A DNA stretch of 64,000 bases. Origin: Heterodontus francisci (lineage: Eukaryota). The notes under the pieces were generated by a model. The model saw only the letters and a program-made list of their open reading frames with translations. It was not told the origin of the DNA and made no database searches. Shown in pieces: positions 857-51,662 of the stretch (positions are counted from its first letter, which is position 1; each line of letters begins with the position of its first letter). Location of the stretch: assembly GCF_036365525.1 (NCBI RefSeq), contig NC_090404.1:7936001-8000000 (forward strand). The letters run 5' to 3'. The position numbers were made by a program, and so were the translations under genes.

Positions 857-1298
857 GATCTCAAAACACAGTAATACAGGGCGCTGTCTGTGATCTTCTA
901 GTTTTTCATGGACGAATGAAAAGTGCCTTGTGTTCGACTGATTTTCCCGCTGAATTGCTCAAAGCCGGAATCCGTATCGTTTTACCAATAAATATCGGCT
1001 CTGAGCGCATAGCGAGGGGCTTGCTGTCGATAGCAGAACAAGTAATAGCTTGTAGCTGAATCTGATACAGAGTAACTGCAAGTTATTGCTAAATATGCAC
1101 TCCTTTCTGAACCGGCTCTTTGTTCTGACTGACCTACTCATCTCTGGAAATAAACAGCGGACACACAGCGGGTTGGACGGTGTAACAGAAAGAGAAAGTG
1201 ATGGAGATGGGAAATTATATAAAAATCACGAAATATTGTAGGAAGGCCCCAATATCACTGACTTGTGATCAGGACAGTAACCAGAACCAACCTCCATG
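857..1298 (-). pseudogene. TCR alpha/delta-type V pseudogene (inverted relative to neighbours)
   Basis: V exon ~1143-857 reads ...AITCSYSVSDSATSYYLFCYRQQAPRYALRADIYW*NDTDSGFEQFSGKISRTQGTFHSSMKN*KITDSALYYCVLR, followed by a 23-RSS. It has two stops and W>C in the WYRQ motif. Leader remnant WRLVLVTVLIT + GTCAGT donor at ~1298-1257 has no in-frame ATG. Confidence 0.85.
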
Positions 1299-3094: not shown

Positions 3095-3113
3095 GGGCCA
3101 CCAGAGGGCGCAG
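3095..3113 (+). promoter_or_regulatory. CTCF motif upstream of V leader
   Basis: GGGCCACCAGAGGGCGCAG, near-consensus core, ~180 bp 5' of the leader ATG at 3292. Confidence 0.7.
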
Positions 3114-3291: not shown

Positions 3292-3663
3292 ATGAATGAA
3301 ATAGCAATTGTCACTTTTTTGATTTTATCTGAGTGTTTTGTGCAGAAAAGAGTTCGCCGTTAGAGCATGTTTGCCCGTTTCTCACTATATGTCTGTTATG
3401 TATCGACAGTTATCGGCGGAGAAGCTGAGATCCAGCAACCACAGCAGATGTTTGCACAAGAGACAATCGATTGAAATCCAGCGGCACGGACAGTATCCAC
3501 TGGTACAGAGAACCGTGGCCCCAAATTCATTCTGTCCACCATCAGTGGCAACACCATTGACTGGTGGTTCAGATTCTTTACCGGTCCAAAAAGAAGTTAC
3601 AACATTCTCGGTATTGGCAGCACCGCGGTATCAGACGTTGGAGTGTATTACTGGGCAGTGAGG
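3292..3663 (+). pseudogene. TCR alpha-type V pseudogene (TRAV4/TRAV26-like framework)
   Basis: Leader-like MNEIAIVTFLILS at 3292; acceptor AG 3408-3409. Frameshifted pieces IGGEAEIQQPQQMFAQE / SGTDSIHWYR / RGPKFILSTISGNTIDWWFRFFTGPKRSYNILGIGSTAVSDVGVYYWAVR. First Cys region deleted and second Cys>Trp. Confidence 0.8.
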
Positions 3664-3702
3664 CACTGTGAGACAAAGACTGAGCGCTCCAATACAATAT
3701 CG
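3664..3702 (+). other. 23-RSS
   Basis: CACTGTG + 23 nt + ACAATATCG directly after ...YYWAVR. Confidence 0.75.
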
Positions 3703-3796
3703 ACTGCAGGTTCCTATCAGACAATCTCTACACATCTATTTTTCTCTCCTGAATGTGTTGACTCCTATATTGGGTAGAGTTCCACGGGCTCCATTC

Positions 3797-6280
3797 ATCC
3801 TATAAGCAAAGTCCTCCTTACATACATCTGGGGGCTTGTGCCAATATTGCGAGAGATGTCCCACAGACCACTCAAGCAACAGCCTGGCGTAGTCATACTC
3901 ACGGAATCATACCTTACAGACAATGCCCCAGACACTGCCATCACCATCCCTGGGTATGTCCTGTCCCACCGGCAGGACAGACCCAGCAGAGCTGGCAGCA
4001 CAGTGGTATACAGGAGGGAGGGAGTTGCCCTGGGAGTCCTCAACATCGACTCTGGACACATGAAGTCTCACAGCATCAGGTCAAACATGGGCAAGGAAAC
4101 CTCCTGCTGATTACCACCTACCGCCCTCTCTCAGCTGATGAGTCAGTACTCCTCCATGTTGAACACCACTTGGAGGAAACACTGAGGGTGGCAAGGGCAC
4201 AGAATGTACTCTGGGTGGGGGACTTCAATGTCCATCACCAAGAGTGGCTCGGTAGCACCACTACTGACAGAGCTGGCCGAGTCCTAAAGGACATAGTTGC
4301 TAGACGGGGTATGCAGCAAGTGGTGAGGGAACCAACAAGAGGGAAAAACATACTTGACCTCGTCCTCACCAATCTGCCTGCTGCAGAAGCATCTCTCCAT
4401 GATACTATCGGTAGGAGTGACCACCGCACAGTCCTTGTGGAGACGAAATCCCGCCTTCACATTGAGGCTACCCTCCATCGTGTTGTTTGGTACTACCACC
4501 ATGCTAAATGGAATAGATTTCGAACAGATCTGGCAATGCAAAACCGGGCATCCATGAGGCGCTGTGGGTCATCAGCAGCAAAATTATACCCATCCACAAT
4601 CTGTAACCTCATGGCCCGGCATATCCCCCACTCTACCATTACCATCAAGCCAGGAGACCAACCCTGGTTCAATGAAGAGTGCAGGAGGGCATACCAGGAG
4701 CAGCACCAGGCATACCTCAAAATGAGGTGTCAACCTGGTGAAGTTACAACACAGGACTATCTGCGTGCCAAACTGCATAAGCAGCATGTGATAGACAGAA
4801 CTAAGCGATCCCATAACCAACGGATCAGATCTAAGCTCTGCAATCCTGCCACATCCAGCCGGGAATGGTGGTGGACAATTAAACAACTAACTGGAGGAGG
4901 TGGCTCCATAAATATCTCCATCCTCAATGATGGGGGAGCCCAGCACATCAGTGCAAAAGATAAGGCTGAAGCATTTGCAACAATCTTCAGCCAGAAGTGC
5001 CGAGTTGATGATCCACCTCGGCCTCCTCCTGAAACCCCTAGCATCACAGATGCCAGACTTCAGCCAATCCGATTCACTCCGCGTGATATCAAGAAACGAC
5101 TGAAAGCAGTGGACACTGCAAAACCTATGGGCCCTGACAATATTCCGGCCAAAGCACTGAAGACCTTTGCTCCAGAACTTGCCGTGCCCCTAGCCAAGCT
5201 GTTCCAGTACAGCTACAACATTGGCATCTACCCGGCAATGTGGAAAATTGCCCAGGGATGTCCTGTACACAAAAAGCAGGACAAATCCAACCCGGCCAAC
5301 TACCGCCCCATTAGTCTACTCTCAATCATCAGTAAAGTGATGGAAGGTGTTATCAACAGTGCCATCAAGCGGCACTTGCTTAGCAATAACCTGTTCAGTG
5401 ACGCTCAGTTTGGGTTCCGCCAGGGCCACTCAGCTCCTGACCTCATTACAGCCTTGGTTCAAATATGGACAAAAGGGCTGAACTCAAGAGGTGAGGTGAG
5501 AGTGACTGCCCTTGACATCAAGGCAGCATTTGACCGAGTATGGCATCAAGGAGCCCGAGCAAAACTGAGGTCAATGGGATTCAGGGGGAAAACCCTCCGC
5601 TGGCTGGAGTCATACCTCGTGCAAATGAAGATGGTTGTGGTTGTTGGAGGTCAACCATCAGAGCTCCAGGACATCACTGCAGGAGTTCCTCAGAGTAATA
5701 TCCTAGGCCCAACCATCTTCAGCTGCTTCATCAATGGCCTTCCTTCAATCATAAGGTCAGAAGTGGGGATGTTGTGATTGCACAATGCTCACCATTCACA
5801 ACTCCTCAGATACTGAAGCAGTCCGTATAGAAATGCAGCAAGACCTGGACAACATCCAGGCTTGGGATGATAAGTGGCAAGTAACATTCGTACCACACAA
5901 GTGCCAGGCAATGACCATCTCCAAGAAGAAAGAATCGAACCATCTCCCTTTGGTGTTCGCTGAATCCTATATCGCCTATCAACATCCCAGGGGTTACCAT
6001 TGACTAGAAACTGAACTGGAGTAGTCATGTAAATACCGTGGCTGCAAGAACAGGTCAGAGGCTAGTAATCCTGCAGCGTGTAACTCACCTCCTGATTCTA
6101 CAAATCCTGTCTACCATCTACAAGGTACAAGTCAGGAGTGTGATGGAATACTCTACACTTGTCTGGATGGGTGCAGCTCCAACAACACTCAAGAAGCTCG
6201 ATACCATCCAGGACAAAGCAGCCCGCTTGATTGGCACCCCATCTACAAACATTCAGTCCCTCCACCACCGATGCACAGAG
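3797..6280 (+). mobile_element. Non-LTR retrotransposon (CR1/L2-group), APE endonuclease + RT, defective
   Basis: ORFs 3838-4110 and 4170-5777 carry VILTESYL, VGDFNVHH, SDH, YRPISLL, ALDIKAAFDRVWH, AGVPQ. The FADD motif is destroyed by a deletion at ~5770; frameshifted continuation to ~6280. Confidence 0.9.
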
Positions 6281-8079: not shown

Positions 8080-8529
8080 ATGTGTTTCTCTATTTATTTC
8101 AGTGTGGTTTTAGCCCTCTCTGTGTTGTGTAAGTACATGTGGAATCTGTGTACAAATAAACACTAACAGGTCTGGCTATTGAGGCGGCTATTTATAAATG
8201 TTCAATTTCTCTTCCAGCCGGCAGTGCTGGCGGCGATTCTGTGCATCAAGACTATTTGACCAGGACAGTGCGGGAAGGGGAAGCGGTGACGCTGAATTGT
8301 AGTTTTACAACAGATACAGACCCTTACCTTTCCTGGTACCGGCAGCTTCCCGACCGGACTCTGGTAAATGTGTTGTTTATCACCCAATACGGCACCTTCC
8401 CAGCCGACTTCTCCAAGGACAGTTTCACAGCAGAGCTGAGCACAGAGGAGAGCACGGTTCAGCTGAGAGTTTCTGCGGCGGAGCTGTCAGACAGCGCCGT
8501 GTATTACTGTGCTCTGAGAGCCACAGCTA
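8080..8529 (+). CDS. Intact TCR alpha/delta V gene segment (leader exon 8080-8128, V exon 8218-~8529)
   Basis: Leader MCFSIYFSVVLALSVL + GTAAGT donor (8129), phase-1 intron, acceptor AG 8216-8217. In-frame V: SGSAGGDSVHQDYLTRTVREGEAVTLNCSFTTDTDPYLSWYRQLPDRTLVNVLFITQYGTFPADFSKDSFTAELSTEESTVQLRVSAAELSDSAVYYCALRA. Both Cys and the Trp are intact; the CALR end is typical of TRAV/TRDV. Confidence 0.93.
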
Positions 8530-8568
8530 CACAGCTACACAGCTCCGTGTCCGCCCTGTACAAAAACC
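8522..8568 (+). other. 23-RSS with triplicated heptamer
   Basis: CACAGCT at 8522, 8530 and 8538; perfect nonamer ACAAAAACC at 8560-8568; spacers 31, 23 and 15 nt. Confidence 0.9.
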
Positions 8569-9174
8569 TCAGCACACTGTGTGTAACTAGAACTGTGTGT
8601 GACTGCACCACCCGCTCTGTGATGGTCTGAATTGGACAGTTATTCTCCGGATAGAATGTTCCCGCAGTGCAGCTCCCATTATCTCCGAATAGAGGAGTCA
8701 GATTTCAGATTTCATTCACTCTATAATGAGGAATCGACAGGCGAAAGCCTGCCAAAGTTTAGTAGGCCAACTTACCGGGTAATGTGTGTTAAATTGCAAG
8801 TCTCCCCTATTCACTGCCCATGTACTTTCCCGTTCTGTTTGTCATGTCGCTTTCACAAAGACACCAGAGGAAATCTTCCCCTTGTGTATCTTCAGCTGAA
8901 GATTAATCAACCCGATCCCCATCAACTAGCTCAGTCTGATTAGTAACAGCGAGTGAAATAAGCTGAACACCTACATTCAATGCCTTTGTTTCTTTGGGAG
9001 AACTTCCCTCAGATCAGGCAAAGATAAAACTTTCTCTCAGATCAATTGGAGATCAATCTGTCTCTCTGCTCAATTAGAGATCCATCTGCCCACGTTTGTT
9101 ACTCTTTCGCTCTGATGAGCAGAATGTGACTTTAATGCCTCAATTCTCTGAAATAAACACGAGCTTGTGGTTAA

Positions 9175-9330: not shown

Positions 9331-10391
9331 ATGCGGCTCCCTGTTCTCGCCGTGCTCTTGGTAACATTTATAATCGGTAAGAGGTTTAAAACTTTAAAAA
9401 GGGATTAATTTCTAGAGAAATAAATTTGAAAAACAAGAGTTCATGGTAAACTTCTGTCGAACTTGGTTAGACCAGAATTGGGGCATTGTGAGCAGCTCTG
9501 GTCGCTGTATGACAACAAGGATGTAAGGGCAAAGGAGAAAATGGAAAAAAGATGATGCCGGAATTGAGAAATAATAGCTATCAGAAAACATTGTACAGGC
9601 TGGGGCTCTTTTCTCTCGTAAAGGGAAGACTGAAAGGTGATAGAAGCCTTTAAAATTATGAAGGTGCTCGATAGGCAGAACTGGAGAAGCTTTTGCCACT
9701 TGCGGTGCAAACAAAACAATGGGTCATAAATGTAAGAGTCACCAAAATATCCACCAGGGAATTCAGGAAAAAATCCTTACCCAGAGAGTCGTGAAAATGT
9801 GGAACTCGCTACCACAAGGAGTTGTTGAGGTGGACAGTATAGATGCATTTAAGGGGAAGCTGGATAAAGAGATGAGGAAGAAAGGGATGGAAGGATATGC
9901 CGACAGAGTGAGATGAAGAGGGGTGGGGAGTGTGAAACCTGGCATGGACCAGTTGGGCCGAATGACTTTTCCTGTGCTGTAAATTCTATTCAATCTTATG
10001 AAACACTGACTGTTAATTTTCACCATCAGTTGGGTTCAGTCGAAGTTTTAATCGATGATTTCTGCTTTCTTTAACCGTGTGTTCCAGATCTGAGCGATGG
10101 AGATTCTATTACTCAGCGGGAATCCTCGCTCACACTGACAGAGGGAGAAGATGTCACTTTAACCTGCACCTATACTGGAGATGTGTATTACTTATTCTGG
10201 TATCGCCAATACCCAGGCAGGCAGCCCGAGTTTGCAGTCCGGAGGTACACGAGCGGCGGTGATGAATTGAAGGCGGATTTCGCTCAGGACCGGTTTTCTG
10301 ATACAGTCCAGCAGTCAGACAAGTTGTACTGATTGACCATCACGGAACTGCGGCTGTCTGACACAGCGGTCTATTACTGCGCTCTGAGTCT
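9331..10391 (+). pseudogene. TCR alpha/delta V segment with a single premature stop (leader 9331-9376, V exon 10088-10391)
   Basis: Leader MRLPVLAVLLVTFII + GTAAGA donor; acceptor AG 10086-10087. V: DLSDGDSITQRESSLTLTEGEDVTLTCTYTGDVYYLFWYRQYPGRQPEFAVRRYTSGGDELKADFAQDRFSDTVQQSDKLY*LTITELRLSDTAVYYCALS, with TGA at 10330-10332. Confidence 0.92.
9440..9985 (+). mobile_element. Old CR1 3' fragment inside the V leader intron
   Basis: Translates to TQRVVKMWNSLPQGVVEVDSIDAFKGKLDKEM (CR1 ORF2 C-terminus), followed by the gggccgaatgact tail. Confidence 0.8.
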
Positions 10392-10430
10392 CACAGTGAT
10401 GGGAACGAGTTACAGCCTCGTACAATAACT
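10392..10430 (+). other. 23-RSS, consensus heptamer
   Basis: CACAGTG + 23 nt + ACAATAACT. Confidence 0.92.
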
Positions 10431-11370: not shown

Positions 11371-14210
11371 AACAAAGAACAAAGTACAGTACAGGACAGG
11401 AACAGGCCATTCGGCCCTCCAAGCCTGCGCTGATCTTGATGCCTGACTAAACTAAAACCTTCTGCACTTCCTGGGACCGTATCCCTCTATTCCCAACCTA
11501 TTCATGTATTTGTCAAGATGTCTCTTAAACGTCGCTATCGTATCTGCTTCCACCACCTCCCCGGCAGCAAGTTCCAGGCACTCACCACCCTCTGTGTAAA
11601 GAACTTGCCTCGCACATCCTCTCTAAACTTTGCCCCTCTCACCTTAAACCTATGTCCCCTAGTAACTGACTCTTGCACCTTGGGAAAAAGCTTCTGACTA
11701 TCCACTCTGTCCATGCCACTCATAACTTTGTAAACCTCTATCATGTCGCCCCTCCACCTCCGTCGTTCCAGTGAAAACAATCCGAGTTTATCCAACCTCT
11801 CCTCATAGCTAATGCCCCCCAGACCAGGCAACATCCTGGTAAACCTCCTCTGTACCCTCTCCAAAGCCTCCACGTCCTTCTGGTAGTGTGGCGACCAGAA
11901 TTGCACGCAATATTCTAAGTGTGGCCCAACTAAGGTTCTGTACAGCTGCAGCATGACTTGCCAATTTTTATACTCTATGCCCCGACCGATGAAGGCAATC
12001 ATGCCGGATGCCTTCTTGACTACCTTATCCACCTGCGTTGCCACTTTCAGTGACCTGTGGACCTGTACGCCCAGATCTCTCTTCCTGTCAATACTCGTGA
12101 GGGTTCTGCCATTTACTGTATACTTCCCACCTGCATTAGACCTTCCAAAATGCATTACCTCACATTTGTCCGGATTAAACTCCATCTGCCATTTCTCCGC
12201 CCAAGTCTCCAGCCTATCTATATCCGGCTGTATCCTCCGACAATCCTCATCACTATCCGCAACTCCACCAACCTTTGTGTCATCCGCAAACTTACTAATC
12301 AGACCAGCTACATTTTCCTCCAAATCATTTATATACACTACAAACAGCAAAGGTCCCAGCACTGATCCCTGCGGAACCCCACTAGTCACATCCCTCCATT
12401 CAGAAAAGCACCATCCCACTGCTACCCTCTGTCTTCTATGACCGAGGCAGTTCTGTATCCATCTTGCCAGCTCCCCTCTGATCCCGTGTGACTTCACCTT
12501 TTGTACCAGTCTGCCATGAGGGACCTTGTCAAAGGCTTTACTGAAGTCCATATAGATAACATCCACTGCCCTTCCTTCATCAATCATCTTTGTCACTTCC
12601 TCAAAAAACTCAATCAAATTAGTGAGACACGACCTCCCCTTCACAAAACCATGTTGTCTCTCGCTAATAAGTGCGTTTGTTTCCAAATGGGAGTAAATCC
12701 TGTCCCGAATAATCCTTTGTAATAATTTCCCTACCACTGACGTAAGGCTCAATGGCCTATAATTTCCTGGATTATCCTTGCTACCCTTCTTAAACAAAGG
12801 AACAACATTGGCTATTCTCCAGTCCTCTGGGACCTCACCTGTAGCCAATGAGGATGCAAAGATTTCTGTCAAGGCCCCAACAATTTCTTCCCTTGCCTCC
12901 CTCAGTATTCTGGGGTAGATCACATCAGGCCCTGGGGACTTATCTACCTTAATGCTTTGCAAGACACCCAACACCTCCTCCTTTTTGATAATGAGATGAC
13001 TGAGACTATCTGCACTCCCTTCCCTAGGCTCATCATCCACCAAGTCCTTCTCCTTGGTGAATACTGATGCAAAGTACTCATTTAGCACCTTGCTCATTTC
13101 CTCTGGCTCCACACGTAGATTCCTGTCCTTGAGTGGGCCAACCCTTTCCCTGGTTATCCTCTTGCTCTTTATATACGTATAAAAAGCCTTGGGATTTTCC
13201 TTAATCCTGTTTGCCAATGACTTTTCACGACCCCTTTTAGCCCTCCTGACTCCTTGCTTAAGTTCCTTCCTACTGTCTTTATATTCCTCAGGGGATTCGT
13301 CTGTTCCTAGCCTTCCAGCCCTTATGAATGCTTCCTTTTTCTTTTTGACTATGCTCACAATATCCCGCGTTATCCAAGCTTCCTAAAACTTGCCAAACTT
13401 ATCCTTCTTCCTCACAGGAACATGCTGGTCCTGGATTCTAATCAACTGACGTTTGAAAGACTCCCACATGTCAGATGTTTATTTACCCTCAAACAGCCGC
13501 CCCCAATCTAAATTCTTCAGTTCCTGTCTAATATTGTTATAATTTGCCTTCCCCCAATTTAGCACCTTCACCCGAGGACTGCTCTTATCCTTATCCACAA
13601 GTACCTTAAAACTTATGGAATTATGGTCACTGTTCCCGAAATGCTCCCCTACTGAAAGTTCGACCACCTGGCCGGGCTCATTCCCCAATACCAGGTCCAG
13701 TACGGCCCCATCACTAGTTGGACTATCTACATATTGTTTCAAGAAGCCCTCCTGGATGCTCCTTACAAATTCTGCCCCATCCAAGCCCCTAGCACTAAGT
13801 GATTCCCAATCAATATAGGGGAAGTTAAAATCACCCACCACTACAACCCTGTTACCTTTACATCTTTCCAAATTCTGTCTACATATCTGCTCCTCTACCT
13901 CCCGCTGGCTGTTGGGAGGCCTGTAGAAAACCCCCAACACCGTGACTGCACCCTTCCTATTCCTGAGCTCCACCCATATTGCCTCGCTGCATGACCCCTC
14001 CGCGGTGTCTTCCCGCAGTACAGCTGTGATATTCTCCTTAACAAGTAATGCAACTCCCCCACCCCTTTTACATCCCCCTCTATCCCGCCTGAAGCTTCTA
14101 AATCCTGGAACGTTTAGCTGCCAATCCTGTCCTTCCCTCAACCAAGTCTCTGTCATAGCAACAATATCATAGTTCCAAGTACTAATCCAAGCTCTAAGTT
14201 CATCTGCCTT
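11371..14210 (-). mobile_element. CR1 LINE, 5'-truncated, near-complete ORF2 (young family)
   Basis: ORFs 13479-14156 (endonuclease: TETWL, VGDFN, SDH) and 11535-13358 (RT: [19 protein letters not shown]), split by nonsense codons. Short-repeat 3' tail at ~11371. Closely similar to copies at 47368-50101 and 62866-64000. Confidence 0.95.
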
Positions 14211-14353
14211 GTCTTTGCTTTGTCTTGTACTAACTGCAACTATTTCATTATCACAACCGTTTTGGTGTCGTGCTCTTCAGAATGTCTTTTGAAAGAAACT
14301 GGTAAACAATAGCTCTTTGGATTGAAGGAAACTGCTGGGAGAAATTCTGATGT

Positions 14354-14372
14354 ATTCCACCAGATGGCAGCA
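14354..14372 (+). promoter_or_regulatory. Strong CTCF motif
   Basis: ATTCCACCAGATGGCAGCA; a weaker opposite-strand match CTGCCAGAAGGCGC lies at ~14489-14502. Confidence 0.6.
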
Positions 14373-17811: not shown

Positions 17812-19572
17812 ACACACTGCACCCCACAGAGACATTACAAACTGCCCCCTCCCGGAGACAGCTCAGTATCAGACACTGAACACACAGCACCCCACAGAGA
17901 CATCACAAACTGCCCCCTCCCGGGGACAGCTCAGTATCAGACACTGAACACACTGCACCCCACAGAGACATCACAAACTGCCCCCTCCCGGGGACAGCTC
18001 AGGATCAGACACTGAACACACTGCACCCCACAGGGACATCACAAACTGCCCCCTCCCGGGGACAGCTCAGGATCAGACACTGAACACACTGCACCCCACA
18101 GAGACATCACAAACTGCCCCCTCCCGGGGACAGCTCAGGATCAGACACTGAACACACTGCACCCCACAGAGACATCACAAACTGCCCCCTCCCGGAGACA
18201 GCTCAGGATTAGACACTGAACACACTGCACCCCACAGAGACATCACAAACTGCCCCCTCCCGGGGACAGCTCAGGATCAGACACTGAACACACTGCACCC
18301 CACAGGGACATCACAAACTGCCCCCTCCCGGGGACAGCTCAGTATCAGACACTGAACACACTGCACCCCACAGAGACATCACAAACTGCCCCCTCCCGGG
18401 GACAGCTCAGGATTAGACACTGAACACACTGCACCCCACAGGGACATCACAAACTGCCCCCTCCCGGGGACAGCTCAGTATCAGACACTGAACACACTGC
18501 ACCCCACAGAGACATCACAAACTGCCCCCTCCCAGGGACAGCTCAGGATTAGACACTGAACACACTGCACCCCACAGAGACATCACAAACTGCCCCCTCC
18601 CAGGGACAGCTCAGGATTAGACACTGAACACACTGCACCCCACAGGGACATCACAAACTGCCCCCTCCCGGAGACAGCTCAGTATCAGACACTGAACACA
18701 CTGCACCCCACAGGGACATCACAAACTGCCCCCTCCCGGGGACAGCTCAGGATCAGACACTGAACACACTGCACCCCACAGAGACATCACAAACTGCCCC
18801 CTCCCGGAGACAGCTCAGGATTAGACACTGAACACACTGCACCCCACAGAGACATCACAAACTGCCCCCTCCCGGGGACAGCTCAGGAACAGTCACTGAT
18901 CACACAGCACCCCACAGAGACATCACAAACTGCCCCCTCCCGGGGACAGCTCAGGATTAGACACTGAACACACTGCACCCCACAGAGACATCACAAACTG
19001 CCCCCTCCCTGGGACAGCTCAGGATCAGACACTGAACACACTGCACCCCACAGAGACATCACAAACTGCCCCCTCCCGGGGACAGCTCAGGAACAGTCAC
19101 TGATCACACAGCACCCCACAGAGACATCACAAACTGCCCCCTCCCGGGGACAGCTCAGGATCAGACACTGATCACACAGCACCCCACAGAGACATCACAA
19201 ACTGCCCCCTCCCGGGGACAGCTCAGGATCAGACACTGATCACACTGCACCCCACAGGGACATCACAAACTGCCCCCACCCGGGGACATCTCAGGAACAG
19301 TCACTGATCACACTGCACCCCACAGGGACATCACAAACTGCCCCCTCCCAGGGACAGCTCAGGAACAGTCACTGATCACACAGCACCCCACAGAGACATC
19401 ACAAACTGCCCCCTCCCGGGGACAGCTCAGGATTAGACACTGAACACACTGCACCCCACAGAGACATCACAAACTGCCCCCTCCCGGGGACAGCTCAGGA
19501 TCAGACACTGATCACACTGCACCCCACAGGGACATCACAAACTGCCCCCACCCGGGGACATCTCAGGGTCAG
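17812..19572. repeat. 68-bp minisatellite, ~26 copies
   Basis: Unit acactgaacacactgcaccccacagagacatcacaaactgccccctcccggggacagctcaggatcag; starts at 17873, 17941, 18009... Confidence 0.97.
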
Positions 19573-20830: not shown

Positions 20831-21434
20831 TCACTCTGCAACACAGGGGCTGGAGAACTGAACCCAGTCAGAGTAGAGGGAGGGAGAAAACTGGCAGTGG
20901 AGGAAAGAAATGGTGCAGATGCTGCGATGGGTTTGGATTTCAGCACAGGGAGGAGGGAGAGTGTGTGGGGGAACAAGGGGGGAAAAAATGTTCTATAGAA
21001 ACTAGAATTGTCTGTTCAGAATTTCTATCCTGTACTGACAGTGATGACTTTTGTAAACTCCTTATTTACAGGATATTAGAAGGGGAGTATTTGCAGACTG
21101 AAAACTCAAACCAAAGATCACATCAAGATCTGGCAGAGTCACTCGAATCATCAGGACCTGAATATCAGCAGTCTTTGAATGTGGAAGGCGAAATGTTTGT
21201 CTGTTCTGATTGTGGGAAAAGATTTCAGACATCAGTGTGACTGGAAAAGCACCGAGACACACACACACCCGAGTGAGAGTGTTCACTGCACTGACTGCGG
21301 AAAGATCCTTCACTCGTTACACAGACTAAATAAACATCGCAGCATTGACACTGGGAAGAAACAGTGCATGTGTTCTGTGTGGACTAGGCTTTAACTGATT
21401 GTCCTTGTGTCTCTCCAGGTTGGACACTCACCCC

Positions 21435-22109
21435 ATGGAGAAGCAGTGGAAATGTGGGGACTGTGGGAAGGGATTCAGTTACCCGTCACTTCTGGAAATT
21501 CATAGGCGCAGTCACACTGGGGAGAGACCATTCACCTGCTCTGTGTGTGGGAAGGGATTCACTCAGTCATCCCACCTCAAAACACACCAGCAAGTTCACA
21601 CTGGAGAGAGGCCATTCACCTGCCTTGAATGTGGGAAGAAATTTAATGCTTTATCAAACCTCCTGTCACACCAGCGGGTTCACTCTGATAAGAGACCGTT
21701 TAAATGTTCTGACTGTGAGAAGAGATTTAAAAGCAAAAACCAGCTTCTGCAACACCAACGTACTCACACTGGGGAGAGGCCGTTCACCTGTGCTGTGTGT
21801 GGGAAGGAATTCACTCAATTATGCCACCTTCTGAGACACCAACAGCTTCACACTGGGGAGAGACCGTTCACCTGCTCTGAGTGTGGGAAAGGATTCATTC
21901 AGTCATCCCACCTCACTGAACACCAACTTGTTCACACTGATCAGAGGTTTTTTAAATGTTCTGACTGTGACAAGAGATTTAAAAGTAAAAACAATCTGCT
22001 GAGACACCAGCGAGTTCATACTGGGGAGAGGCCATTCACCTGCTCTGTGTGTGGGAAGGGATTTGCTAATTCAAACAATCTGCTGAGACACCAGCGAATT
22101 CACAAGTGA
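21435..22109 (+). CDS. Tandem C2H2 zinc-finger protein, 8 fingers (cassette 1)
   Basis: [14 protein letters not shown]...HQRIHK*, 224 aa, TGERPF linkers. Preceded by an acceptor at 21070-21071 and decayed fingers with stops (21072-21420). Confidence 0.85.
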
Positions 22110-23339: not shown

Positions 23340-26300
23340 TGGCAGTATGATATCATAGCTGTAACAGAAACATGGATTAAGGAGGGACAAGAGTGGCAGC
23401 TCAACGTTCCTCATTACAGGGTTTTCAGATGCGATAGGGAGGGGGATAAGAAAGGAGGGGAAGTGGCAATTTTGGTCAAGGAAACTATTACAGCTGTGAG
23501 GAGGGATGATATGTTGGAAGGCTCATCAAATGAGGCCATATGGATTGAGCTAAGGAACAAAAAAGGGGCAATCACACTGCTGCAAGTGTACTATAGACCC
23601 CAAACAGTCAGAGGGAGATAGAGGAGCAGATATGTAGGCAAATCTCTGAGAAGTGCAAGAAGAATAGGGCAGTAATAGTAGGGGATTTACATTACCCCAA
23701 TATTAACTGGGATAGTTTTAGTGTGGAAGGAATTGAGGGAGCAGAGTTCTTGAGGTGCATTCAGAAGAACTATTTTGCCCAGTATGTAGCAAGTCCAACA
23801 AGAGAGGGCGCAGTTTTAGACTTATTTTAGGAAGGAGTGGTAGTGATCATAATTCAGTCAGTTTTAACATAATTATGGAAATGGACAAAGATAGAACAGG
23901 AGTTAGAGTTCTCAACTGGGGCAAGGCCAATTTTAGTAAACTGAGGAGTGATTTAGCAAAAGTGGACTGGAACAGCTACTTGAAAGTAAATCAATGTCAG
24001 AGCAGTGGGAGGCATTCAAAGGGGAGATTCAAGGGGTTCAGGGTAAACATGTTCCCACAAAGAAAAAGGGTGAGGAGGCCAAATCTGTAGCCCCATGGAT
24101 ATCAAGGAGCCTACATGGTAAGATAAGGCAGAAAAGGAAAGCTTATGAGCAACACCAAGAACTCAATGCTACAGAAAGCAGAGAGGTGTATAGAAAGTGG
24201 AGGGGTGAAATCAAAAAGGAAATTAGGAAAGCAAAGAGAAGACATGAAAGAATATTGGCAAGCAAAATCAAGGTGAACCCATAGATGTTTTATCAATACA
24301 TTAAGAGTAAGAGGAAAACTAAGGAGAGAGTAGGGCCCATAAAAGACCAAAAAGGTAACTTATGTGTAGGAGCAGATGATATTGGGATGGTTCTTAATGA
24401 ATACTTTGCGTCTGTCTTCCAAAGAGGGGGGCGATGTAGATATTGTAGTTAAGGAGGAAGAGTGTGACGTATTGGATGTGATAAACATAGGGAGAGAGGA
24501 AGTATTAATGGGATTAGTATCCTTGAAAGTTGACAAATCACCAGGGCCAGATGAAATGTATCCTAAGCTGTTAAAAGAAGCAAGAGGGGAAATAGCAGAG
24601 GCTCTGACCATCATTTTCCAGTCCTCACTGGATACAGGTGTGGTGCTGGAGGATTGGAGAACTGCTAACGTTGTACCTCTATTTAAAAAGGGATCGAAGG
24701 ATAGACTGAATAATTACAGGCCAGTCAGTCTAACCTCAGTAGTGGACAAATTATTGGAATCTATTCTGAGATACAGGATAAACTGTCACTTAGAAAGGCA
24801 CAGGTAAATCAAGGATAGTCAGCATGGATTTGTTAAGGGAAGCTCTTGTTTGACCAACTTGATCGAATGTTTTGAAGAAGTAACAAGGAAGATAGATGAG
24901 GGTAGTGCAGTTGATGTGGTCTACACGGATTTTAGCAAGGCTTTTGACAAGGTCCCAACCTGTAGACTGGTTAAAAAAAACCATGGGATCCAGAGAAATG
25001 CAGCAAAGTGGATACAAAATTGGCTCAGTGGCAGGAATAATAAAAGGATAATTGTTGACGGCTATTTTAGTGACTGGATGACTGTTTCCAGTGGCGTTCC
25101 GCAGTGCTCAGCACTTGGTCCCCTGTTTTTTGTGGTGTTTAATGATTTGGATGTAAATGTAGGGGGCATGATCGAAGCACTTGTGGATGACACAAAGATT
25201 GGCCCTGTGGTAGATAGAGAGGCGGATAGCTGTAGGCTGCAGGAAGATATTGATGGTCTGGTCAGATGGGCAGAAAAGTGACCAATGGAATTCAACTTGG
25301 GGAAGTGTGAGGTGATGCATTTGGGGAGAGCAAACAAGGCAAAGGAATACACGATTAATGGGAAAATACCGAGAAGTGTAGAGGAAGTAAGGGACCTTGG
25401 AGTGAATGTCCACAGATCCCTGAAGATAGCAGGATAGGTCGATAAGGTGGTTAAGAAGGCATATGGAATCCTTTCCTTTATTAACCAAGGTACAGAATAT
25501 AAGAGCAGGGAGATTATGCTGGAACTGTATAACTCATTGGTTAGGCCACAACTTGAGTACTGTGTGCAGTTCTGGTAATCTCATTACAGAATGGATGTAA
25601 TTGGACTAGAGAGGCACAGTGGCACAGCAGTTAGCACCGCAGCCTCACAGCTCCAGTAACCCTGGTTCAATTCTGGGTACTGCCTGTGTGGAGTTTGCAA
25701 GTCCTCCCTGTGTCTGCGTGGGTTTCCTCCCACATGCCAAAGACTTGCAGGTTGATAGGTTAATTGGCCATTATAAATTGCCCCTAGTATAGGTAGGTGG
25801 TAGGGAAATATAGGGACAGGTGGGGATGTGGTAGGAATATGGGATTAGTGTAGAGTTAGTATAAATGGGTGGTTGATGGTCGGCACAGACTCGGTGGGCC
25901 GAAGGGCCTGTTTCAGTGCTGTATCTCTAAAACTAAGAGGGTACAGAGGAGATTTACGAGGATGTTGCCAGGACTGGAAAAGTGCAGCTATGAGGAAAGA
26001 TTGGATAGGCTGGGGTTGTTCTCCTTGGACAGAGAAGGCTGAGGGGAAATCTGATTGAAATGTACAAAGTTTTGAGGGGCCTGGATAGAGTGGAGGTGAA
26101 GGGTCTATTCACCTTAGCAGAGAGATCAGTGACGAGGGGGCATAGAGTTTTAGGCAGAAAAATTAGAGGGGAAATGAGGATAAACTTTTTCACCCAGAGA
26201 GTGGTGATGGTCTGGAGCTCACTGCCTGAAAAGATGGTTGAGGCAGAGACTCTCAACTCATTCAAAAGGAGTCTGGATATGCACCTCAAGTGCCGTAAAC

Positions 26301-31488: not shown

Positions 31489-32060
31489 TCACTTGTGAAC
31501 TCGCTGGTGTTTCAGCAGGTGGGATGATTGAGTGAATCCCTTCCCACACACACAGCAAGTGAATGGCCTCTCCCCAGCCTGAACTCGCTGGTGTGTTACC
31601 AGATCCTTTTTGCTTTTAAAGCTCTTCTCACAGTCGGAACATTTAAAAGGTCTCTGGTCACTGTGTACAAGTTGATGTTCAGTGAGCCAGGATGACTGAG
31701 TGAATCCCTCCCTACACACAGAGCAGGTGAATGGCCTCGCTATAGTGTGAACTCGCTGGTGTCTCGGCAGGTTCGCTGAGTGAGTGAATCCCTTTCCACA
31801 CACAGAGCAGGTGAACAACCTCTCCCAGTGTGAACTCACTGGTGTCTCAGTAGGTGAGATGGCCGAGTGAATCCCTTCTCACACACTGTACAAATGAACG
31901 GCCTCTCCCCAGTGTGAGTGCGCTGGTGTGTCAGCAGATCATTGCTGCTCTTAAAGTTCTTCCCACAGTCAGAACATTTAAATGGTCTCTGATCAGTGTG
32001 AACTTCTTGGTGTTGCTGAAGATTGAATGACTGAGTGAATCCCTTCCTACACACGGAGCA
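31489..32060 (-). pseudogene. C2H2 zinc-finger pseudogene, 7 fingers (cassette 2)
   Basis: TGA at 31838-31836 plus a 1-bp deletion in a TGER linker. The 5' part is deleted, so intron sequence (ctgtactgacagtgatgac) is fused directly to a finger at 32060/32061. Confidence 0.85.
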
Positions 32061-37793: not shown

Positions 37794-38720
37794 TCACTTG
37801 TGAACTCGCTGGTGTCTCAGCAGATTATTTGAATTAGCAAATCCCTTCCCACAGGCAGAGCAGGTGAATGGCCTCTCCCCGGTGTGAACTCGCTGGTGTG
37901 TCAACAGATTGCTTTTACTTTTAAATCTCTTCTCACAGTAAGAACACTCAAAAGGTCTCTTATCAGTGTGAACAAGTTGATGTACAGTGAGGTGGGATGT
38001 CGCTGTGAATCCCTTCCCACACATGGAGCAGATGAATGGTCTCTCCCCAGTGTGAACGCGCTGGTGGATCAGAAAGTTGGATAATCGAGTGAATTCCTTC
38101 CCACACTCAGTGCAGGTGAACGGTCTCTCCCCCGTGACAACTTGCTGGTGTATCAGAAGGTTGGATAATTGAGTGAATCCCTTCCCACACTCAGAGCAGG
38201 TGAACGGCCTCTCCCCAGTGTGAGTACGTTGGTGTTGCAGCAGCTCATTTTTACTTTTAAATCTCTTCTCACAGTCAGAACATTCAAAAGGCCTCTTATC
38301 TGTGTGAACAAGTTGGTGTCTCAGGAGGTTGGAAGGCTGAGCGAATCCCTTTCCACACATGGTGCAGGTGAATGGCTTTTCCCCAGTGTGAACTCGCTGG
38401 TGTGTCAGTAGGTTGGATAGTTTAGTGAATCCCTTCGCACAAATGGAGCAGGTGAACGGCCTCTCCCCAGTGTGAGTACGTTGGTGTTTCAACAGCTCAT
38501 TTTTACTTTTAAATCTCTTTTCACAGTCAGAACATTCAAAGGGTCTGTTATCTGTGTGAACAAGTTGATGATGAGTGAGGTAGGATGACCGAGCGAATCC
38601 CTTCCCACACACAGAGCAGGTGAACGGCCTCTCCCCAGTGTGGCTGCGTCGATGAATTTCCAGCTGAGACGGGTAATTGAACCCATTCCCACAGTCCTCA
38701 CATTTCCATGGTTTCTCTGT
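37794..38720 (-). CDS. Tandem C2H2 zinc-finger ORF, 11 fingers (cassette 3), family ATG replaced by ACA
   Basis: Open frame [23 protein letters not shown]...HQRVHK*. ACA at 38720-38718 where the paralogues have ATG. Upstream in-frame TGA; acceptor at ~39043. Finger 7 lacks its second His. Possibly a pseudogene. Confidence 0.6.
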
Positions 38721-40741
38721 GATGCAGGTGTCCTTGTCTCTCTCCAGGTTGAATGATCAGTTGTAACCTTGGCCACACACAGAACACGTGTACAGTTTCT
38801 CCCCGCTGTGAATGGTGCAATGGTTTTTTCACACTGGAACACTCTCACTCGGGTGTGTCTGTGTCTCAGTGCTTTTCCAGCCACACTGATGTTTGAAATA
38901 TTTTCCCACAAACAAGTGTTTCGCCTTCTACATTCAGTGACCACTGACATTCAGACACCGATGAACCGAGTGATCCTCCCAGATCTTGATGTAATGTTTG
39001 GTTTGAGTTTACCCCGTCTGCAAATCCTCCCCTTATAATAACCTGTGAAAGGAGTTTACAAAAGTCATCACTCTAAGTAGGAACATTAGAACAGGAGGAG
39101 GCCATTCAGCCCATTGAGCCTATTCTGGCATTCAGTTAGATTATGGCTGATCTGGATCATAACTCCATCTACCCAGCCTTGGTTCTGGAACCCTTATTAA
39201 TCTTGTCTAACAAAAATCTAATGAACATAATATTGAAATTTTCAATTGACCCACAGCCGCTCCACCTTTTTTGGTGGGGAGAGTTCCAGATTTCCACTGC
39301 CTCCTGACATCACTGAACAGCTGAGCTCTACTTTTAAAGTTATGTCCCCTGGTTGTGAACTCCCTCCCTAGAGGAAATAGTTTCTCTATATCTGTCCTAT
39401 CAATGCCTTTAATCATCTTAAACACCTCTATTAAATCACTCCATAATCTTCTGTATTCAGGAGAATATAACCCTAGACTATTTAACCTGTCCTTATAATT
39501 GACAAACGTCATCATTGTATGTACAGGATAGCAATTCAAAACAGACGGTTCGAATTTTTCTGGAACATTCTTTCCTCCTTTCCCTCTCCTAAGCTTTAAA
39601 TCACATAATCCCACACACTCTCCCTCCTTGCCACATCCTCAGTGCTTGAAATCCAGATTCATCACAGGCTCTTATTTTTGCCCCTTTCTCTCCTGAAGGT
39701 GCTGTGGGGTTCAGCCCCAGTCACTGTTTACCTTCCAGCACCTTGTCAATTGGACATTCTGAGCTTGTGATCCTATAATGAAGGTGCTGTTTGATGGTGG
39801 TATTCAGTCACTGTCACTATTTACCATCCAGTACCTTGCCAAGTGGTAATTCTGAACTTGTGACCATATACAGCAAGCACTAGCATTTCCACCTTGGGAT
39901 CTTTTAAAGTAGTAGAACATCTCAAGGTACATGACAAGAGCATAACCAGTCAAAGACTAACACAGAGCTAAAGAATCTAATCTTCGGGCCAAGGCAATGG
40001 AAGGAACGGTCATCCATGGTGGAATGAATTAGGCACATGAGGCCAGAATTGGAGAAATGCAGAGATCTTGGAGGGTTGTACAGCTGGAGAATGTTACAAA
40101 GATAGGGAGAGCAAAGCCTTGGAGGGATTTGAACAGAAGGAGGGAAATTATAAAGGCTGAAACCACCAGAATGTTGTGACTCACTGATAATAGGAAGGAC
40201 GTCACCTTAATGACTGCAAGTGCAACATTATCCCTCTGAATAAATAAATTGATGCATAATGAGGGGGAAATCAATCTCTGTATCTTTAACTAACAGCGAC
40301 AAGGAATGAAGGAAATAAATGACCTTTAAACACCTGGTCCACTTGGCAGTGAATTGTCTAAAACTTAGAAAAGGAAAACAAAATATTGACAAATGTTAAA
40401 CTGCTTTGTTGAAAAAAGAAATCTTGGTTTAAGTTTGTAAAGATAAATGATTTAACAGTGATTCACACTGACTCACCTGACTAGCCAACTCAGTTTTCAC
40501 CCCTCAAACTCCACGGCTGGTTACAGAACACGCTCCTCCCTTGGCCCTCCAGCCTCTGAGCTCGCTTCCTGTTGGTTTCCAAGAGAATCAATCACTGCTA
40601 TGTTCAGGGGCTCAGAGGAAGAAAAAAATTAGACCATTAATCTATGTTGGTAAATACAATTAGTGAAACATGATTCGATTTGTAGACTAAACTATTCATA
40701 ATCAAATAAAATCAAATGTAGCAATTGATTATTTATAAAAT

Positions 40742-42756: not shown

Positions 42757-45350
42757 TAGAGTCATAGAGTTCTACAGCACAGAAACAGACTCTTTGGCCC
42801 ATCGTGTCTGTGCCGGTCATCAAGCACCTAACTATTCTAATCCCATTTTCCAGCACTTGGCCCATAGCCTTGTATGCTATGGCATTTCAAGTACTCATCT
42901 AAATACTTAATAAATGTTGTGAGGGTTTCTGCCTCCACCACCTCTTCAGGCAGTGCGTTCCAAATTCCAACCACCCTCTGGGTGAAAACATTTTTCCTCA
43001 AATTCCGTCTAAACCTCCTGCCCCTTACCTTAAATCTATGCCCCCTGGTTATTGACCCCTCTGCTAAGGAAAGAAGTTTCTTCCTATCCAACCTATCAAA
43101 GCCACTCATAATTTTGTATACCTCAATCATGTCCCCCTCAGCCTTCTCTGCTCTAAGGAAAACAACCCTAGCCTATCCAGTCTCTCCTCATAGCTGAAAT
43201 GCTCCAGCCCAGGCAACATCCTGGTGAATCTCCTCTGCACCCTCTCCAGTGCAATCACATCCTTCCTATAGTGTGGTGCCCAGAACGGTACACAGTACTC
43301 CAGCTGTGGCCTAAGTAGTGTTTTATACAGCTCCATCATAACCTCCCTGCTTTTATATTCTATGCCTCGGCTGATAAAGGCAAGTACCCCATATGCCTTC
43401 CTAACCACCTTATCTACCTGTGCTGCTGCCTTCAGTGATCGATGGACAAGTACACCAGGATCCCTCTGATCTTCTGTACTTCCTAGGGTCCTACTATCCA
43501 TTGTACTTTGCATCGGTATTCACCGAGGAGAGGGACATGAAGGATGTTGAGGTTAGGAACAGATGTTTGATTACTCCAGGTCAAGTCGGCATAAGGAGGG
43601 AGGAAGTGTTGGGTATTCTAAAAGGCATTAAGGTGGACAAGTCCCCAGGTCCGGATGGGATCTATCCCAGGTTACTGAGGGAAGCGAGAGAGGAAATAGC
43701 TGGGGCCTTAACAGATATCTTTGCAGCATCCTTAAACACGGGTGAGGTCCCGGAGGACTGGAGAATTGCTAATGTTGTCCCCTTGTTTAAGAAGGGTAGC
43801 AGGGATAATCCAGGTAATTATAGACCGGTGAACCTGACGTCAGTGGTAGGGAAGCTGCTGGAGAAGATACTGAGGGATAGGATCTATTCCCATTTGGAAG
43901 AAAATGGGCTGATCAGTGATAGGCAACATGGTTTTGTGCAGGGAAGGTCATGTCTTATCAACTTAATAGAATTCTTTGAGGAAGTGACAAAGTTGATTGA
44001 TGAGGGAAGGGCTGTAGATGTCATATACATGGACTTCACTAAGGCTTTTGATAAGGTTCCCCATGGCAGGCTGATGGAGAAAGTGAAGGCGCATGGGGTC
44101 CAAGGTGTACTAGCTAGATGGATAAAAAACTGGCTGGGCAACAGGAGACAGAGAGTAGCAGTGGAAGGGAGTTTCTCAAAATGGAGACGTGTGACCAGTG
44201 GTGTTCCACAGGGATCCGTGCTGGGACCACTGTTGTTTGTGATATACATAAATGATTTGGAGGAAAGTATAGGTGGTCTGATTAGCAAGTTTGCAGACGA
44301 CACTAAGATTGGTGGAGCAGCAGATAGTGAAGGGGACTGTCAGAGAATACAGCAGAATATAGATAGACTGGAGAGTTGGGCAGAGAAATGGCAGATGGAG
44401 TTCAATCAGGGCAAATGCGAGGTGATGCATTTTGGAAGATCCAATTCAAGAGTGAAGTATACAGTAAATGGAAAAGTCCTGGGGAAAATTGATGTACAGA
44501 GAGATTTGGGTGTTCAGGTCCATTGTTCCCTGAAGGTGGCAACGCAGGTCAATAGAGTGGTCAAGAAGGCATACGGCATGCTTTCCTTCATCGGACGGGG
44601 TATTAAGTACAAGAGTTGGCAGGTCATGTTACAGTTGTATAGGACTTTGGTTCGGCCACATTTGGAATACTGCATGCAGTTCTGGTCGCCACATTACCAA
44701 AAGGATGTGGATGCTTTGGAGAGGGTGCAGAGGAGGTTCACCAGGATGTTGCCTGGTATGGAGGGCGCTAGCTATGAAGAGCGGTTGAGTAGATTAGGAT
44801 TATTTTCATTAGAAAGACGGAGGTTGAGGGGGTCCTGATTGAGGTGTACAAAATCATGAGAGGTATAGACAGGTTGGATAGCAAGAAGCTTTTTCCCCAG
44901 AGTGGGGGATTCAATTACTAGGGGTCATGAGTTCAAAGTGAAAGGGGAAAAGTTTAGGGGGGATATGCGTGGAAAGTTCTTTACGCAGAGGGTGGTGGGT
45001 GCCTGGAACACGTTGCCTGCGGAGGTGGTAGACGCGGGCACGATAGCGTCTTTTAAGATGTATCTAGACAGATACATGAATGGACAGGAAGTAAAGAGAT
45101 ACAGACCCTTAGAAAATAGGCGTCATGTTTAGATAGAAGATCTGGATCGGCGCAGACTTGGAGGGCCGAAGGGCCTGTTCCTGTGCTGTAATTTTCTTTG
45201 TTCTTTGTTTGTATATTCCCTTGCCTTGTTCGTCCTCCCAAAATGCATCACCTCACACTTCTCAGGATTAAATTCCATTTGCCACTGCTCTGCCCATCTT
45301 ACCAGTCCATCTATATCATCCTGTAATCTAAGGCTTTCCTCCTCACTATT
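42757..45350 (-). mobile_element. CR1 3' portion (minus) interrupted by a younger CR1 (plus, ~43505-45210)
   Basis: Minus ORFs 42837-43513. Plus RT ORF (YFASVFTEE...KFADD...RRRLRG) with a short-repeat tail at ~45190-45210, then the minus element resumes; ttgta-like TSD. Confidence 0.88.
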
Positions 45351-45830
45351 TCAGTCTTTTTTTCTCTAGTGCCAGCCCGACAAATTCCCATTTCATTAAG
45401 GTCCATTTCACATCCTGTCTTTGTGTTTCTGTTTGCTCTCTCTCTCACTTTTTCCTGCTTTAAATTCGTTTTACAGGATATTTGACGGGCAGATTTTCAG
45501 ACAGAAAACTCAAACTAAGCATCACATCAAGATCCAACAGAGTCACTCAATTCATCAAGACATGAATATGGTCTTTGTGCAAAAAGAAATGTTTATTTAA
45601 TTAGTCTGTGGGAAAAAGATTTCAAACATCAGTGTGAATGGAAAAACACTGAGACACACACACCTGAGTGAGAGTGTTTCAGTGCATTGACTGTGGGATC
45701 AACTTTAACCAGTTATCCAGCCTGAAAAAAATTGCACAATTTACATCTTGAAGAATCTGTACTCGTGTTCAGTGTGTGGACAAAGCTTTGACTGATCATC
45801 CAACCTGGACAGATACAAGGACACTGAATC

Positions 45831-46421
45831 ATGGAGAAACCATGGAAATGTGAGGACTGTGGGAAGGGATTCGATTACCCATCCAAACTGGAAACACATC
45901 GGCGCAGTCACACTGGGGAAAAGCCGTTCACCTGCTCAGTGTGTGGGAAGGGATTCACTCTATTGTCCAACCTCCAGACGCACCAGCGAGTTCACACAGG
46001 GGAGAGACCATTCACCTGCACTGAATGTGGGCGGGGTTTTACTACTTTATCCAACTTGCTGAAGCACCAGCGGATTCACACAGATCATAGACCTTTTAAA
46101 TGTTCTGACTGTGAGAAGAGCTTTAAAAGCAGAAATGAACTACTGACGCACCAACGCACTCATACAGGGGAGAGGCCATTTACCTGCTCCATGTGCAGGA
46201 AGGGATTCACTCAATTATCACATCTTCTGAGACACCAGCCAGTTCACACGGGGGAGAGGCCATTCAGCTGCTCAACATGTGAGAAGGGATTCACAAATTC
46301 ATCTGAGCTTCTGAGACACCAGCCAGTTCACACGAGGGAGAGGCCCTTCACCTGCTCAGTGTGTGGCAAGGGATTCACTCGATCATTCACCCTGCTGAAA
46401 CACCAGAGATCTCACACGTGA
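45831..46421 (+). CDS. Tandem C2H2 zinc-finger protein, 7 fingers (cassette 4)
   Basis: [23 protein letters not shown]...HQRSHT*, 196 aa; acceptor AG 45475-45476 and decayed upstream fingers homologous to cassette 1. Confidence 0.85.
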
Positions 46422-50374: not shown

Positions 50375-51662
50375 AGAGTCAGCATGGATTTACGAAATCA
50401 TGCTTGACAAATCTACTAGAATTCTTTGAGGATGTAACTAGTAGAGTTGATGAGGGGGAGCCAGTGGATTTGGTTTATTTGGACTTTCAGAAGACTTTCG
50501 ACAAAGTCCCACATAAGAGATTAGCATGTAAAATTAAAGCCAATGGGATTGGGGGTAGTGTATTGCAATGGATAGGAAATTGGTTGGCGGACAGGAAATA
50601 AAGAGGACGGATAAATGGGTCTTTTTCCGAATGGCAGGCAGTGACTAGTGGGGTACCGCAGGGATCGGTGCTAGGACCCCAACTATTCACAATATACATG
50701 AATGATTTAGATGAGGGAATTAAATGTAATATCTCCAAATTTGCAGATGACACAAAACTGGGTGGGAGGGTGAGTTGTGAGGAGGATGCAGAGAGGCTTC
50801 AGGGTGATTTGGACAAGTTGAGTGAGTGGGCTAATGCATGGCAGTTGCAGTATAATGTGGATAAATGTGAGGTTATCCACTTTGGTAGCAAAAGCAGGAA
50901 GACAGATTATTATCTGAACGGCTATAAACTGAGAGAGGAATATGCAGCGAGACTTGGTTGTTCTCGTACACCAGTTGCTAAAGGTAAGCATGCAGGTACG
51001 ACAGGCGGTAAAAAAGGCAAATGGTATGTTGGCCTTCATAGCGAGAGGATTCGAGTACAGGAGCAGGGATGTCTTGCTGCAATTATACAGGGCCTTGGTG
51101 AGGCCACACCTGGAATATTGTGTGCAGTTTGGGTCTCTTTATCTGAGGAAGGATGTTCTTGCTGTAGAGGGAGTGCAGCGAAGGTTTACCAGACTGATTC
51201 CTGGGATGGTGGGACTGACGTATGAGGAGAGATTGAGTCGGTTAGGATTATATTCGCTGGAGTTCAGAAGAGTGAGGGGGGATCTCATAGAAACCTATAA
51301 AATTCTAACAGGACTTGACAGGGTAGATGCAGGTAGGATGGTCCCGATGGTGGGGGAGTCCAGAACCAGGGGTCATAGTCTAAGGATATGGGGTAAACCT
51401 TTCAGGACTGAGATGAGGAGAAATTTCTTCACCCAGAGAATGGTGAGCCTGTGGAATTTGCTACCACAGAAAGCAGTTGAGGCCAAAACTTTGTATGTTT
51501 TCAAGAAGGAGTTAGATATAGCTCTTGGGTCTAAAGGGATCAAAGGATATGGGACGAAAGTGGGAACAGGCTACTGAGTTGGATGATCAGCCCTGATCAT
51601 AATGAATGGCAGAGCAGGCTCGAAGGGCCAAATGGCCTACTCCTCCTATTTTCTATGTTTCT
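50375..51662 (+). mobile_element. CR1 RT/3' portion
   Basis: TNLLEFFEDVT, GVPQGSVLGP, KFADD, LVRPHLEYCVQF; tail ...ttctatgtttcta. Confidence 0.9.

Follow-up and report, generated by a model that had tools for sequence, protein, structure and literature searches.

Tandem Duplication of a Recombination-Signal Heptamer and a Predicted Shift of the Coding End in a Likely T-Cell Receptor Alpha V Gene of a Shark

Introduction

Where would RAG cut a V gene whose recombination signal offers three identical heptamers and a single nonamer? This question is raised by a stretch of 64,000 nt from Heterodontus francisci (the window, as the whole of the analyzed DNA is called here), in which the V gene at 8080-8529 runs into a tandem repeat of the heptamer CACAGCT. 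RAG1 anchors on the nonamer, and short repeats are expanded by replication slippage. Recombination signals pair according to the 12/23 rule (PMC6857471, introduction), and the spacer classes reported to be active are 11-13 nt, 21-25 nt, and, weakly, 34 nt (PMC7605257). In fish V-alpha genes the signal starts at position 15 counted from the Cys codon, and in cartilaginous and bony fishes alike joining is guided by T8-G9 microhomology (PMC10322711). In the bamboo shark, 86.8% of expressed V-alpha signals were placed at position 15, 8.7% at 14, and 2% at 18, with 0 at 19-25, and Fig. 3d of the same paper gives zero V-alpha signals at positions 22-25 in any clade (PMC10322711).

The V Gene and Its Neighbors

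Spliced to the exon at 8218-8529, the leader at 8080-8128 yields 120 codons with zero stops. The product contains a V-set domain (PF07686, E = 1e-13) with its two Cys and the FR2 Trp, and the gene has the leader-intron-V layout and an open frame (Table 1). TCR alpha chains 3tf7 and 1bwm were among the best single-domain matches to solved structures, and the best matches in the protein searches were V domains of bony fishes, alligator, and coelacanth with 35-45% identity; no entry among the matches was named as cartilaginous fish. In the portion of the PMC5931798 supplement that was available, the gene did not match the nurse shark rows aV1-7, 9, and 10, and 0 of 6 motifs were matched in its gapped rows. 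We consider it likely that the gene at 8080-8529 is a shark T-cell receptor alpha V gene.

The window holds four V-like segments, three of which are broken by stops or frameshifts. The cluster is likely TCR alpha/delta, because the neighboring V at 10090-10391 closely resembles, in a comparison by eye, the aV6/aV7 rows of nurse shark in the available portion of that supplement (PMC5931798). The heptamers of the other three Vs start 2, 0, and 2 nt past C/W-x-x-x (CVLR, WAVR, and CALS), in agreement with the 0-2 nt given in the first-pass annotation of this DNA, and their spacers are 23 nt; the heptamer on the minus strand is broken. The same annotation called the gene at 8080-8529 the only intact V, which holds within the window but not beyond it, since many paralogs are present elsewhere in the same sample.

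A motif-plus-signal scan of the window for J segments returned four motif matches, none of them with a usable signal. The 28 long frames scanned (of 41 listed) comprised 3 C2H2 zinc-finger arrays, 8 LINE-type reverse-transcriptase/endonuclease frames, and 17 frames without match, and 0 of the 28 encoded an Ig constant domain. As no J or C exon was found in the window, the Vs represent either the edge of a locus or orphons. Our literature search found no published shark locus map, and zinc-finger neighbors were not mentioned in the available portion of PMC12227049.

Table 1. Positions of the V gene, its recombination signal, and neighboring features in the window.
Feature	Position	Strand	Remark
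Leader exon, ATG to GT donor	8080-8128	+	donor GTAAGT next; in-frame splice
Leader intron, 89 nt, GT-AG	8129-8217	+	
V exon to ancestral coding end; V-set domain, no stop	8218-8521	+	second Cys codon 8508-8510
Ordinary embedded heptamer of FR3 (TACTGTG on plus strand)	8505-8511	-	VH-replacement orientation (PMC3526766)
T8-G9 patch of microhomology, a conserved feature of V-alpha ends in fishes	8515-8516	+	PMC10322711
Unit 1 (heptamer copy 1 plus A)	8522-8529	+	canonical position 15; 31 nt from nonamer; predicted part of coding end
Heptamer copy 2	8530-8536	+	position 23 from Cys codon; alone 23 nt from nonamer; predicted working heptamer
Spacer, 23 nt	8537-8559	+	opens with copy 3 (8538-8544, 15 nt from nonamer), the heptamer-like unit of the family
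Consensus nonamer ACAAAAACC	8560-8568	+	exact match
Broken V, inverted, mutated heptamer CAAAGTG	859-1150	-	
Broken V, without second Cys	about 3420-3700	+	
Broken V, one in-frame stop, consensus heptamer	10090-10430	+	
C2H2 zinc-finger arrays, directly downstream of V cluster	21399-22109, 31494-32060, 37794-38756, 45828-46421	both	
LINE-type endonuclease/reverse-transcriptase frames	3762-5777, 11535-14276, 24808-25281, 43405-44838, 48209-49501, 50602-51225, 53970-55229		

Three Heptamers and One Nonamer

On the plus strand CACAGCT starts at 8522, 8530, and 8538, and the nonamer ACAAAAACC that follows is the sole exact copy in the window. The spacers between the nonamer and copies 1, 2, and 3 are 31, 23, and 15 nt, just as the first-pass annotation had read them. 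Tandem Repeats Finder described 8522-8544 as a repeat of period 8 with 2.9 copies and 100% matches; no other perfect period-8 run of at least 22 nt exists in the window, and a perfect period-8 run of at least 23 nt appeared in 0 of 200 first-order Markov simulations. Copies 1 and 2 have an identical heptamer and the same next two bases.

The best candidates for other nonamers at 12 ± 1, 23 ± 1, and 34 ± 1 nt from any of the heptamer copies had at least four mismatches. One nonamer serves all three copies, and none of the additional heptamers has a nonamer of its own. A 3' recombination signal with a 23-nt spacer is formed by copy 2 and the nonamer at 8560-8568; these spacers, together with the lack of an alternative nonamer, bear out the earlier statement that the second copy alone has legal spacing. 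Copy 3 was ruled out as a 12-signal by its spacer of 15 nt, and copy 1 was ruled out as a three-turn signal by a spacer of 31 rather than 34 nt.

Origin of the Third Unit

Four of the 12 listed sequencing runs were compared with this region; X1 and X2 come from one sample and X8 from another. X1 and X2 contigs (depths of 16.5 and 15.2) cross 8488-8716 with 0 gaps, covering the 23-nt repeat with more than 31 nt on each side, while X8 gave 10 reads, all less than 95% alike and none crossing the signal. Short tandem repeats are prone to error, and the sample of X1 and X2 may be the source of the assembly itself, so that the runs are possibly not independent of it. Nevertheless, since all three units are present in both runs of this sample, we regard an assembly or consensus error as an extremely unlikely source of the third unit, and the contigs speak against the assembly error envisaged in the first-pass annotation. 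The contigs of X1 and X2 differ at 8682 though both have three units, which is a weak hint, given that contigs drop variants, that both haplotypes carry three units.

A two-unit paralog was found in X2 (record 14, 8427-8581, depth 7.5). It differs by 10 other letters and lacks 8 nt at 8522, and it has its heptamer at the usual place (position 15), a 23-nt spacer, and the same nonamer. The loose ends of paralogs behind 8528 (two contigs of X1 and two of X2), 8534 (three of X1 and one of X2), and 8497 (one of X2) read CACAGCT, then a purine and CACAG, then TT; those behind 8526 carry CACAGTG and come from a different family. Of 117 contig pieces and 28 loose ends, the 20 and 16 that were listed included no three-unit paralog. 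The 8-nt event fits 16 equivalent positions. Because a paralog lacks the 8 nt and the spacers of paralogs start with a heptamer-like unit, two units are the ancestral state, to which slippage likely added one more in this V, and the slippage duplication proposed earlier is supported by the two-unit paralog. The heptamer and a spacer opening with a purine and CACAG would form a near-repeat built into the signal of this family and inviting slippage.

At 8497, a paralog in X2 apparently lacks the Tyr-Tyr-Cys codons before an intact heptamer, and at 8536-8675 a paralog in the same run skips 138 nt, nonamer included. The V family appears to turn over quickly.

Predicted Cut Site and Coding End

Because copy 2 alone has legal spacing, and because copies 1 and 3 have no alternative nonamer, any RAG cut is likely to fall at 8529/8530, judging from rules worked out with mammalian RAG. 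RAG1 bound to the single nonamer would measure 23 ± 1 nt and direct the nick to this site. Copy 1 lies at position 15 and copy 2 at position 23 from the Cys codon, and a step of 8 nt is out of phase (8 mod 3 = 2); by geometry, the legal heptamer is displaced from position 15 and out of phase. The germline coding end, if cut at copy 2, would lie 22 instead of 14 nt from the Cys codon. Translation of 8508-8529 gives CALRATA with one base left over, and the extension is free of stops. The first-pass annotation held that the cleavage point had moved by 8 nt and that the germline CDR3 had become longer. This stands as geometry but not as actual cutting or rearrangement, since no rearranged junction or signal joint of the V at 8080-8529 was found in the reads compared.

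How much of the extension would survive in joints depends on trimming. In the bamboo shark, V trimming averages 2.98 nt, CDR3 averages 39 nt, and 28% of joints use microhomology, and joints without insertion account for 46% in shark versus 93% in zebrafish (PMC10322711). In a rough Poisson or geometric model of trimming with the bamboo shark mean of 2.98 nt, which is a model and not data, 90-99% of joints cut at copy 2 keep some added base and 20-44% keep the whole heptamer. The T8-G9 patch is 5 nt from the ancestral end and 13 nt from the predicted new end, and modelled trimming back to the patch occurs in 0-2% of joints from the new end versus 18-24% from the ancestral end. With about 3 nt of trimming, about 5 added bases would remain in most joints, and the patch would be mostly out of reach. 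Because end-anchored stereotyped joints would fall out of frame, productive joints would depend on trimming and N bases, and according to the model they would exceed the 39-nt mean by about 2-3 residues. In zebrafish, Vs with a displacement of -2 or +1 mostly give out-of-frame joints, and the class at position 20 is hardly expressed (PMC10322711). Since N addition is more extensive in sharks than in zebrafish, the frame penalty would be milder in the shark. An 8-nt shift also falls within ordinary variation, as N/P bases number 0-34 in the alpha joints of nurse shark (PMC5931798).

The strength of the heptamer was judged from SARP-seq, which used 12-nt-spacer signals and mammalian RAG (PMC9723617). 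Of the 16 CACAGCT-NN forms, seven were reproducibly active, each of them at row 930 or lower, and the medians were 0.0014% for CACAGCTAT versus 0.28% for CACAGTGAC; in the available portion of these data CACAGCTAC, which is found in both copy 1 and copy 2, was not among the reproducibly active signals (PMC9723617). By analogy, this points to CACAGCT as a weak signal. "Weak" may be overstated, because the assay concerned 12-nt spacers and mammalian RAG and because several shark paralogs share this heptamer; shark RAG or the 23-nt context may tolerate CACAGCT.

Traces of Rearrangement and Expression

Run X5, which is only guessed to be RNA, gave four records. It contains a V-J junction (8427-8515, depth 24.7) that is trimmed to C-A-L and ends in K-L-I-F, apparently one expanded or amplified clonotype. 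This junction was ruled out as that of the V at 8080-8529 itself: it belongs to a paralog, because it mismatches at 8476 and overlaps a contig with eight differences whose flank is also in a DNA run. A paralog junction in X5 means, therefore, that the V family rearranges. The same run holds an exact 156-nt piece of the exon at depth 2.9, which could derive either from DNA or from a transcript of the V at 8080-8529; the reads compared gave no other hint that this V may be expressed.

Competing Explanations

We favor, at somewhat better than an even chance, the reading that an 8-base tandem duplication moved the RAG cut 8 bases later in a V that is probably weakly used and has a slightly longer, out-of-phase end. 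The duplication is probably a variant of one gene rather than a new mechanism. A weak heptamer and a site among broken Vs by a zinc-finger cluster would keep usage low and make the change near neutral. The main rival, which we regard as unlikely though deserving serious attention, is that the signal is effectively dead or the V inaccessible, so that the gene contributes nothing to the repertoire and the duplication is drift toward a pseudogene. The surroundings of the gene would fit this rival: of the four Vs in the window three are broken, zinc-finger genes and LINE-type elements lie in the 50 kb downstream, and no J or C exon was found. So would the place of its heptamer form outside the reproducibly active SARP-seq signals and of its predicted cut beyond any position occupied in the expressed V-alpha sets. 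Against it, the frame is open, the splice sites are intact, and the nonamer is perfect, which among broken neighbors suggests that selection may keep this V; moreover, a close paralog rearranges, and one exact exon piece is present in the possible RNA run.

Selection might also have favored the duplication itself, either for the longer germline CDR3 start (C-A-L-R-A-T-A) or through a balanced polymorphism of unit number that tunes CDR3 length, the first-pass annotation having suggested that unit number may be polymorphic and tune this length by allele. The extension is without stop, its length and net effect equal those of the duplication in bovine IGHV1-7 (PMC5994613), and the X1 and X2 contigs are both three-unit across the hint of two haplotypes. 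We nevertheless find this quite improbable: no listed paralog shares the third unit, 8 nt is small beside the N/P additions of nurse shark alpha joints (PMC5931798), the fish V-alpha signal is tightly conserved at position 15 (PMC10322711), and nothing comparable to the long bovine D is evident as a partner segment. Duplication without any effect on the coding end would result if RAG still cut at copy 1, across a 31-nt spacer or with one unit looped out, and would then be silent or merely less efficient. Copy 1 does keep the canonical position and the original coding flank, and rare mis-targeted cuts have been documented (PMC6857471). But 31 nt is outside every active spacer class reported in the available portion of PMC7605257, copy 1 has no alternative nonamer at 23 ± 1 or 34 ± 1 nt, and the same heptamer with the same next two bases is offered at 23 nt, which makes a cut at copy 1 very improbable in our judgment.

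Proposed V Replacement and Hypothetical Re-Cutting

The first-pass annotation also saw in the embedded unit a cryptic site for V replacement, a proposal that has to be given up. The heptamer used in VH replacement is oriented opposite to the signal of the V itself (PMC3526766), and 8522-8544 has CAC on the plus strand only, with no GTG on that strand. The added unit points forward and cannot serve known V replacement, because this needs a heptamer in the opposite orientation; V replacement through the added unit is thus ruled out by orientation. The only embedded heptamer in the opposite orientation is the ordinary TACTGTG already present at 8505-8511, for which no nonamer within four mismatches was found at 12 ± 1 or 23 ± 1 nt.

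A forward role can be imagined. After a join at copy 2, copy 1 would be a forward cryptic heptamer at which the same V receives a second cut and is then joined, with the canonical end, to a downstream J, a course that we consider highly improbable. If true, it would allow a second try at J replacement that keeps the V, whereas normal alpha editing discards the V, and in a fifth to two-fifths of joints copy 1 would survive exactly where the ancestral cut lay.

Comparison with Known Systems

The closest likeness in fishes is to the zebrafish "rogue" V-alpha genes TRAV11_6 and TRAV52_1 and the position-20 class, which are likewise displaced from position 15 and out of phase and for which stereotyped in-frame joints are similarly predicted to be lost (PMC10322711). 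The rogue genes are shifted by -2, +1, or +5 nt, while the shark V is shifted by +8 through copying of the heptamer, with the old heptamer left at 15, and its position 23 exceeds any position in the expressed sets given in PMC10322711.

In bovine IGHV1-7, an 8-nt duplication at the 3' end of the V also lengthens the germline CDR3 start and alters the frame of the last codons (PMC5994613). There, coding sequence ahead of the signal was copied, while in the shark V it was the heptamer and one base; the 8-nt lengthening is shared if the cut falls at copy 2, but there is no coding-sequence unit before an unchanged signal. IGHV1-7 is moreover the dedicated partner of the ultralong D, and the shark gene is likely a TCR alpha V without such a partner. 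In mouse TRBJ1-7 and TRBJ1-2, a cut at a second heptamer leaves the "expected" heptamer in the coding joint, as predicted here, but the alternative signals of these J segments have their own nonamer 31-39 nt away (PMC6857471), while the shark copies share one nonamer and spacing alone decides. With the heptamer as its duplicated unit and a single nonamer for all copies, the shark V is a strict member of neither the IGHV1-7 nor the TRBJ kind. It also resembles the cryptic signal at the 3' end of VH genes, a heptamer near the V end that survives rearrangement (PMC3526766), except that the added unit is not reverse-oriented. A published V with a tandemly duplicated heptamer was not found in the literature covered, which left out most subscription journals, so that absence is not proven.

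The V at 8080-8529 is unlikely to matter for the repertoire of the animal, because it is one gene among many paralogs. Its value lies elsewhere. Because three identical heptamers share one nonamer, the gene is a natural experiment on spacer measuring by RAG, and its junctions would show how strictly shark RAG measures 23 nt in vivo. They would also show whether a cut away from T8-G9 lowers in-frame joining in cartilaginous fish, as it does in zebrafish. In addition, a heptamer-like spacer start and one slippage event would provide a simple route by which the position of a signal can jump from 15.

Other Features of the Window

The signal of the V at 3652 is followed, after about 60 nt, by the start of one of the LINE-type frames. 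A 68-nt repeat (1655-1722 and 2630-2697, 79% alike) lies between two Vs and contains a CTCF-like motif. The CTCF-like pattern scanned for had two further exact matches nearby, at 3098-3111 and 14357-14370; three matches in the whole window compare with 1.05 expected, and 11 of 100 shuffles reached three, so that the number is not significant. At 17812-19572 there is a minisatellite with a CAC-rich unit of 68 nt, in 25.9 copies with 95% matches.
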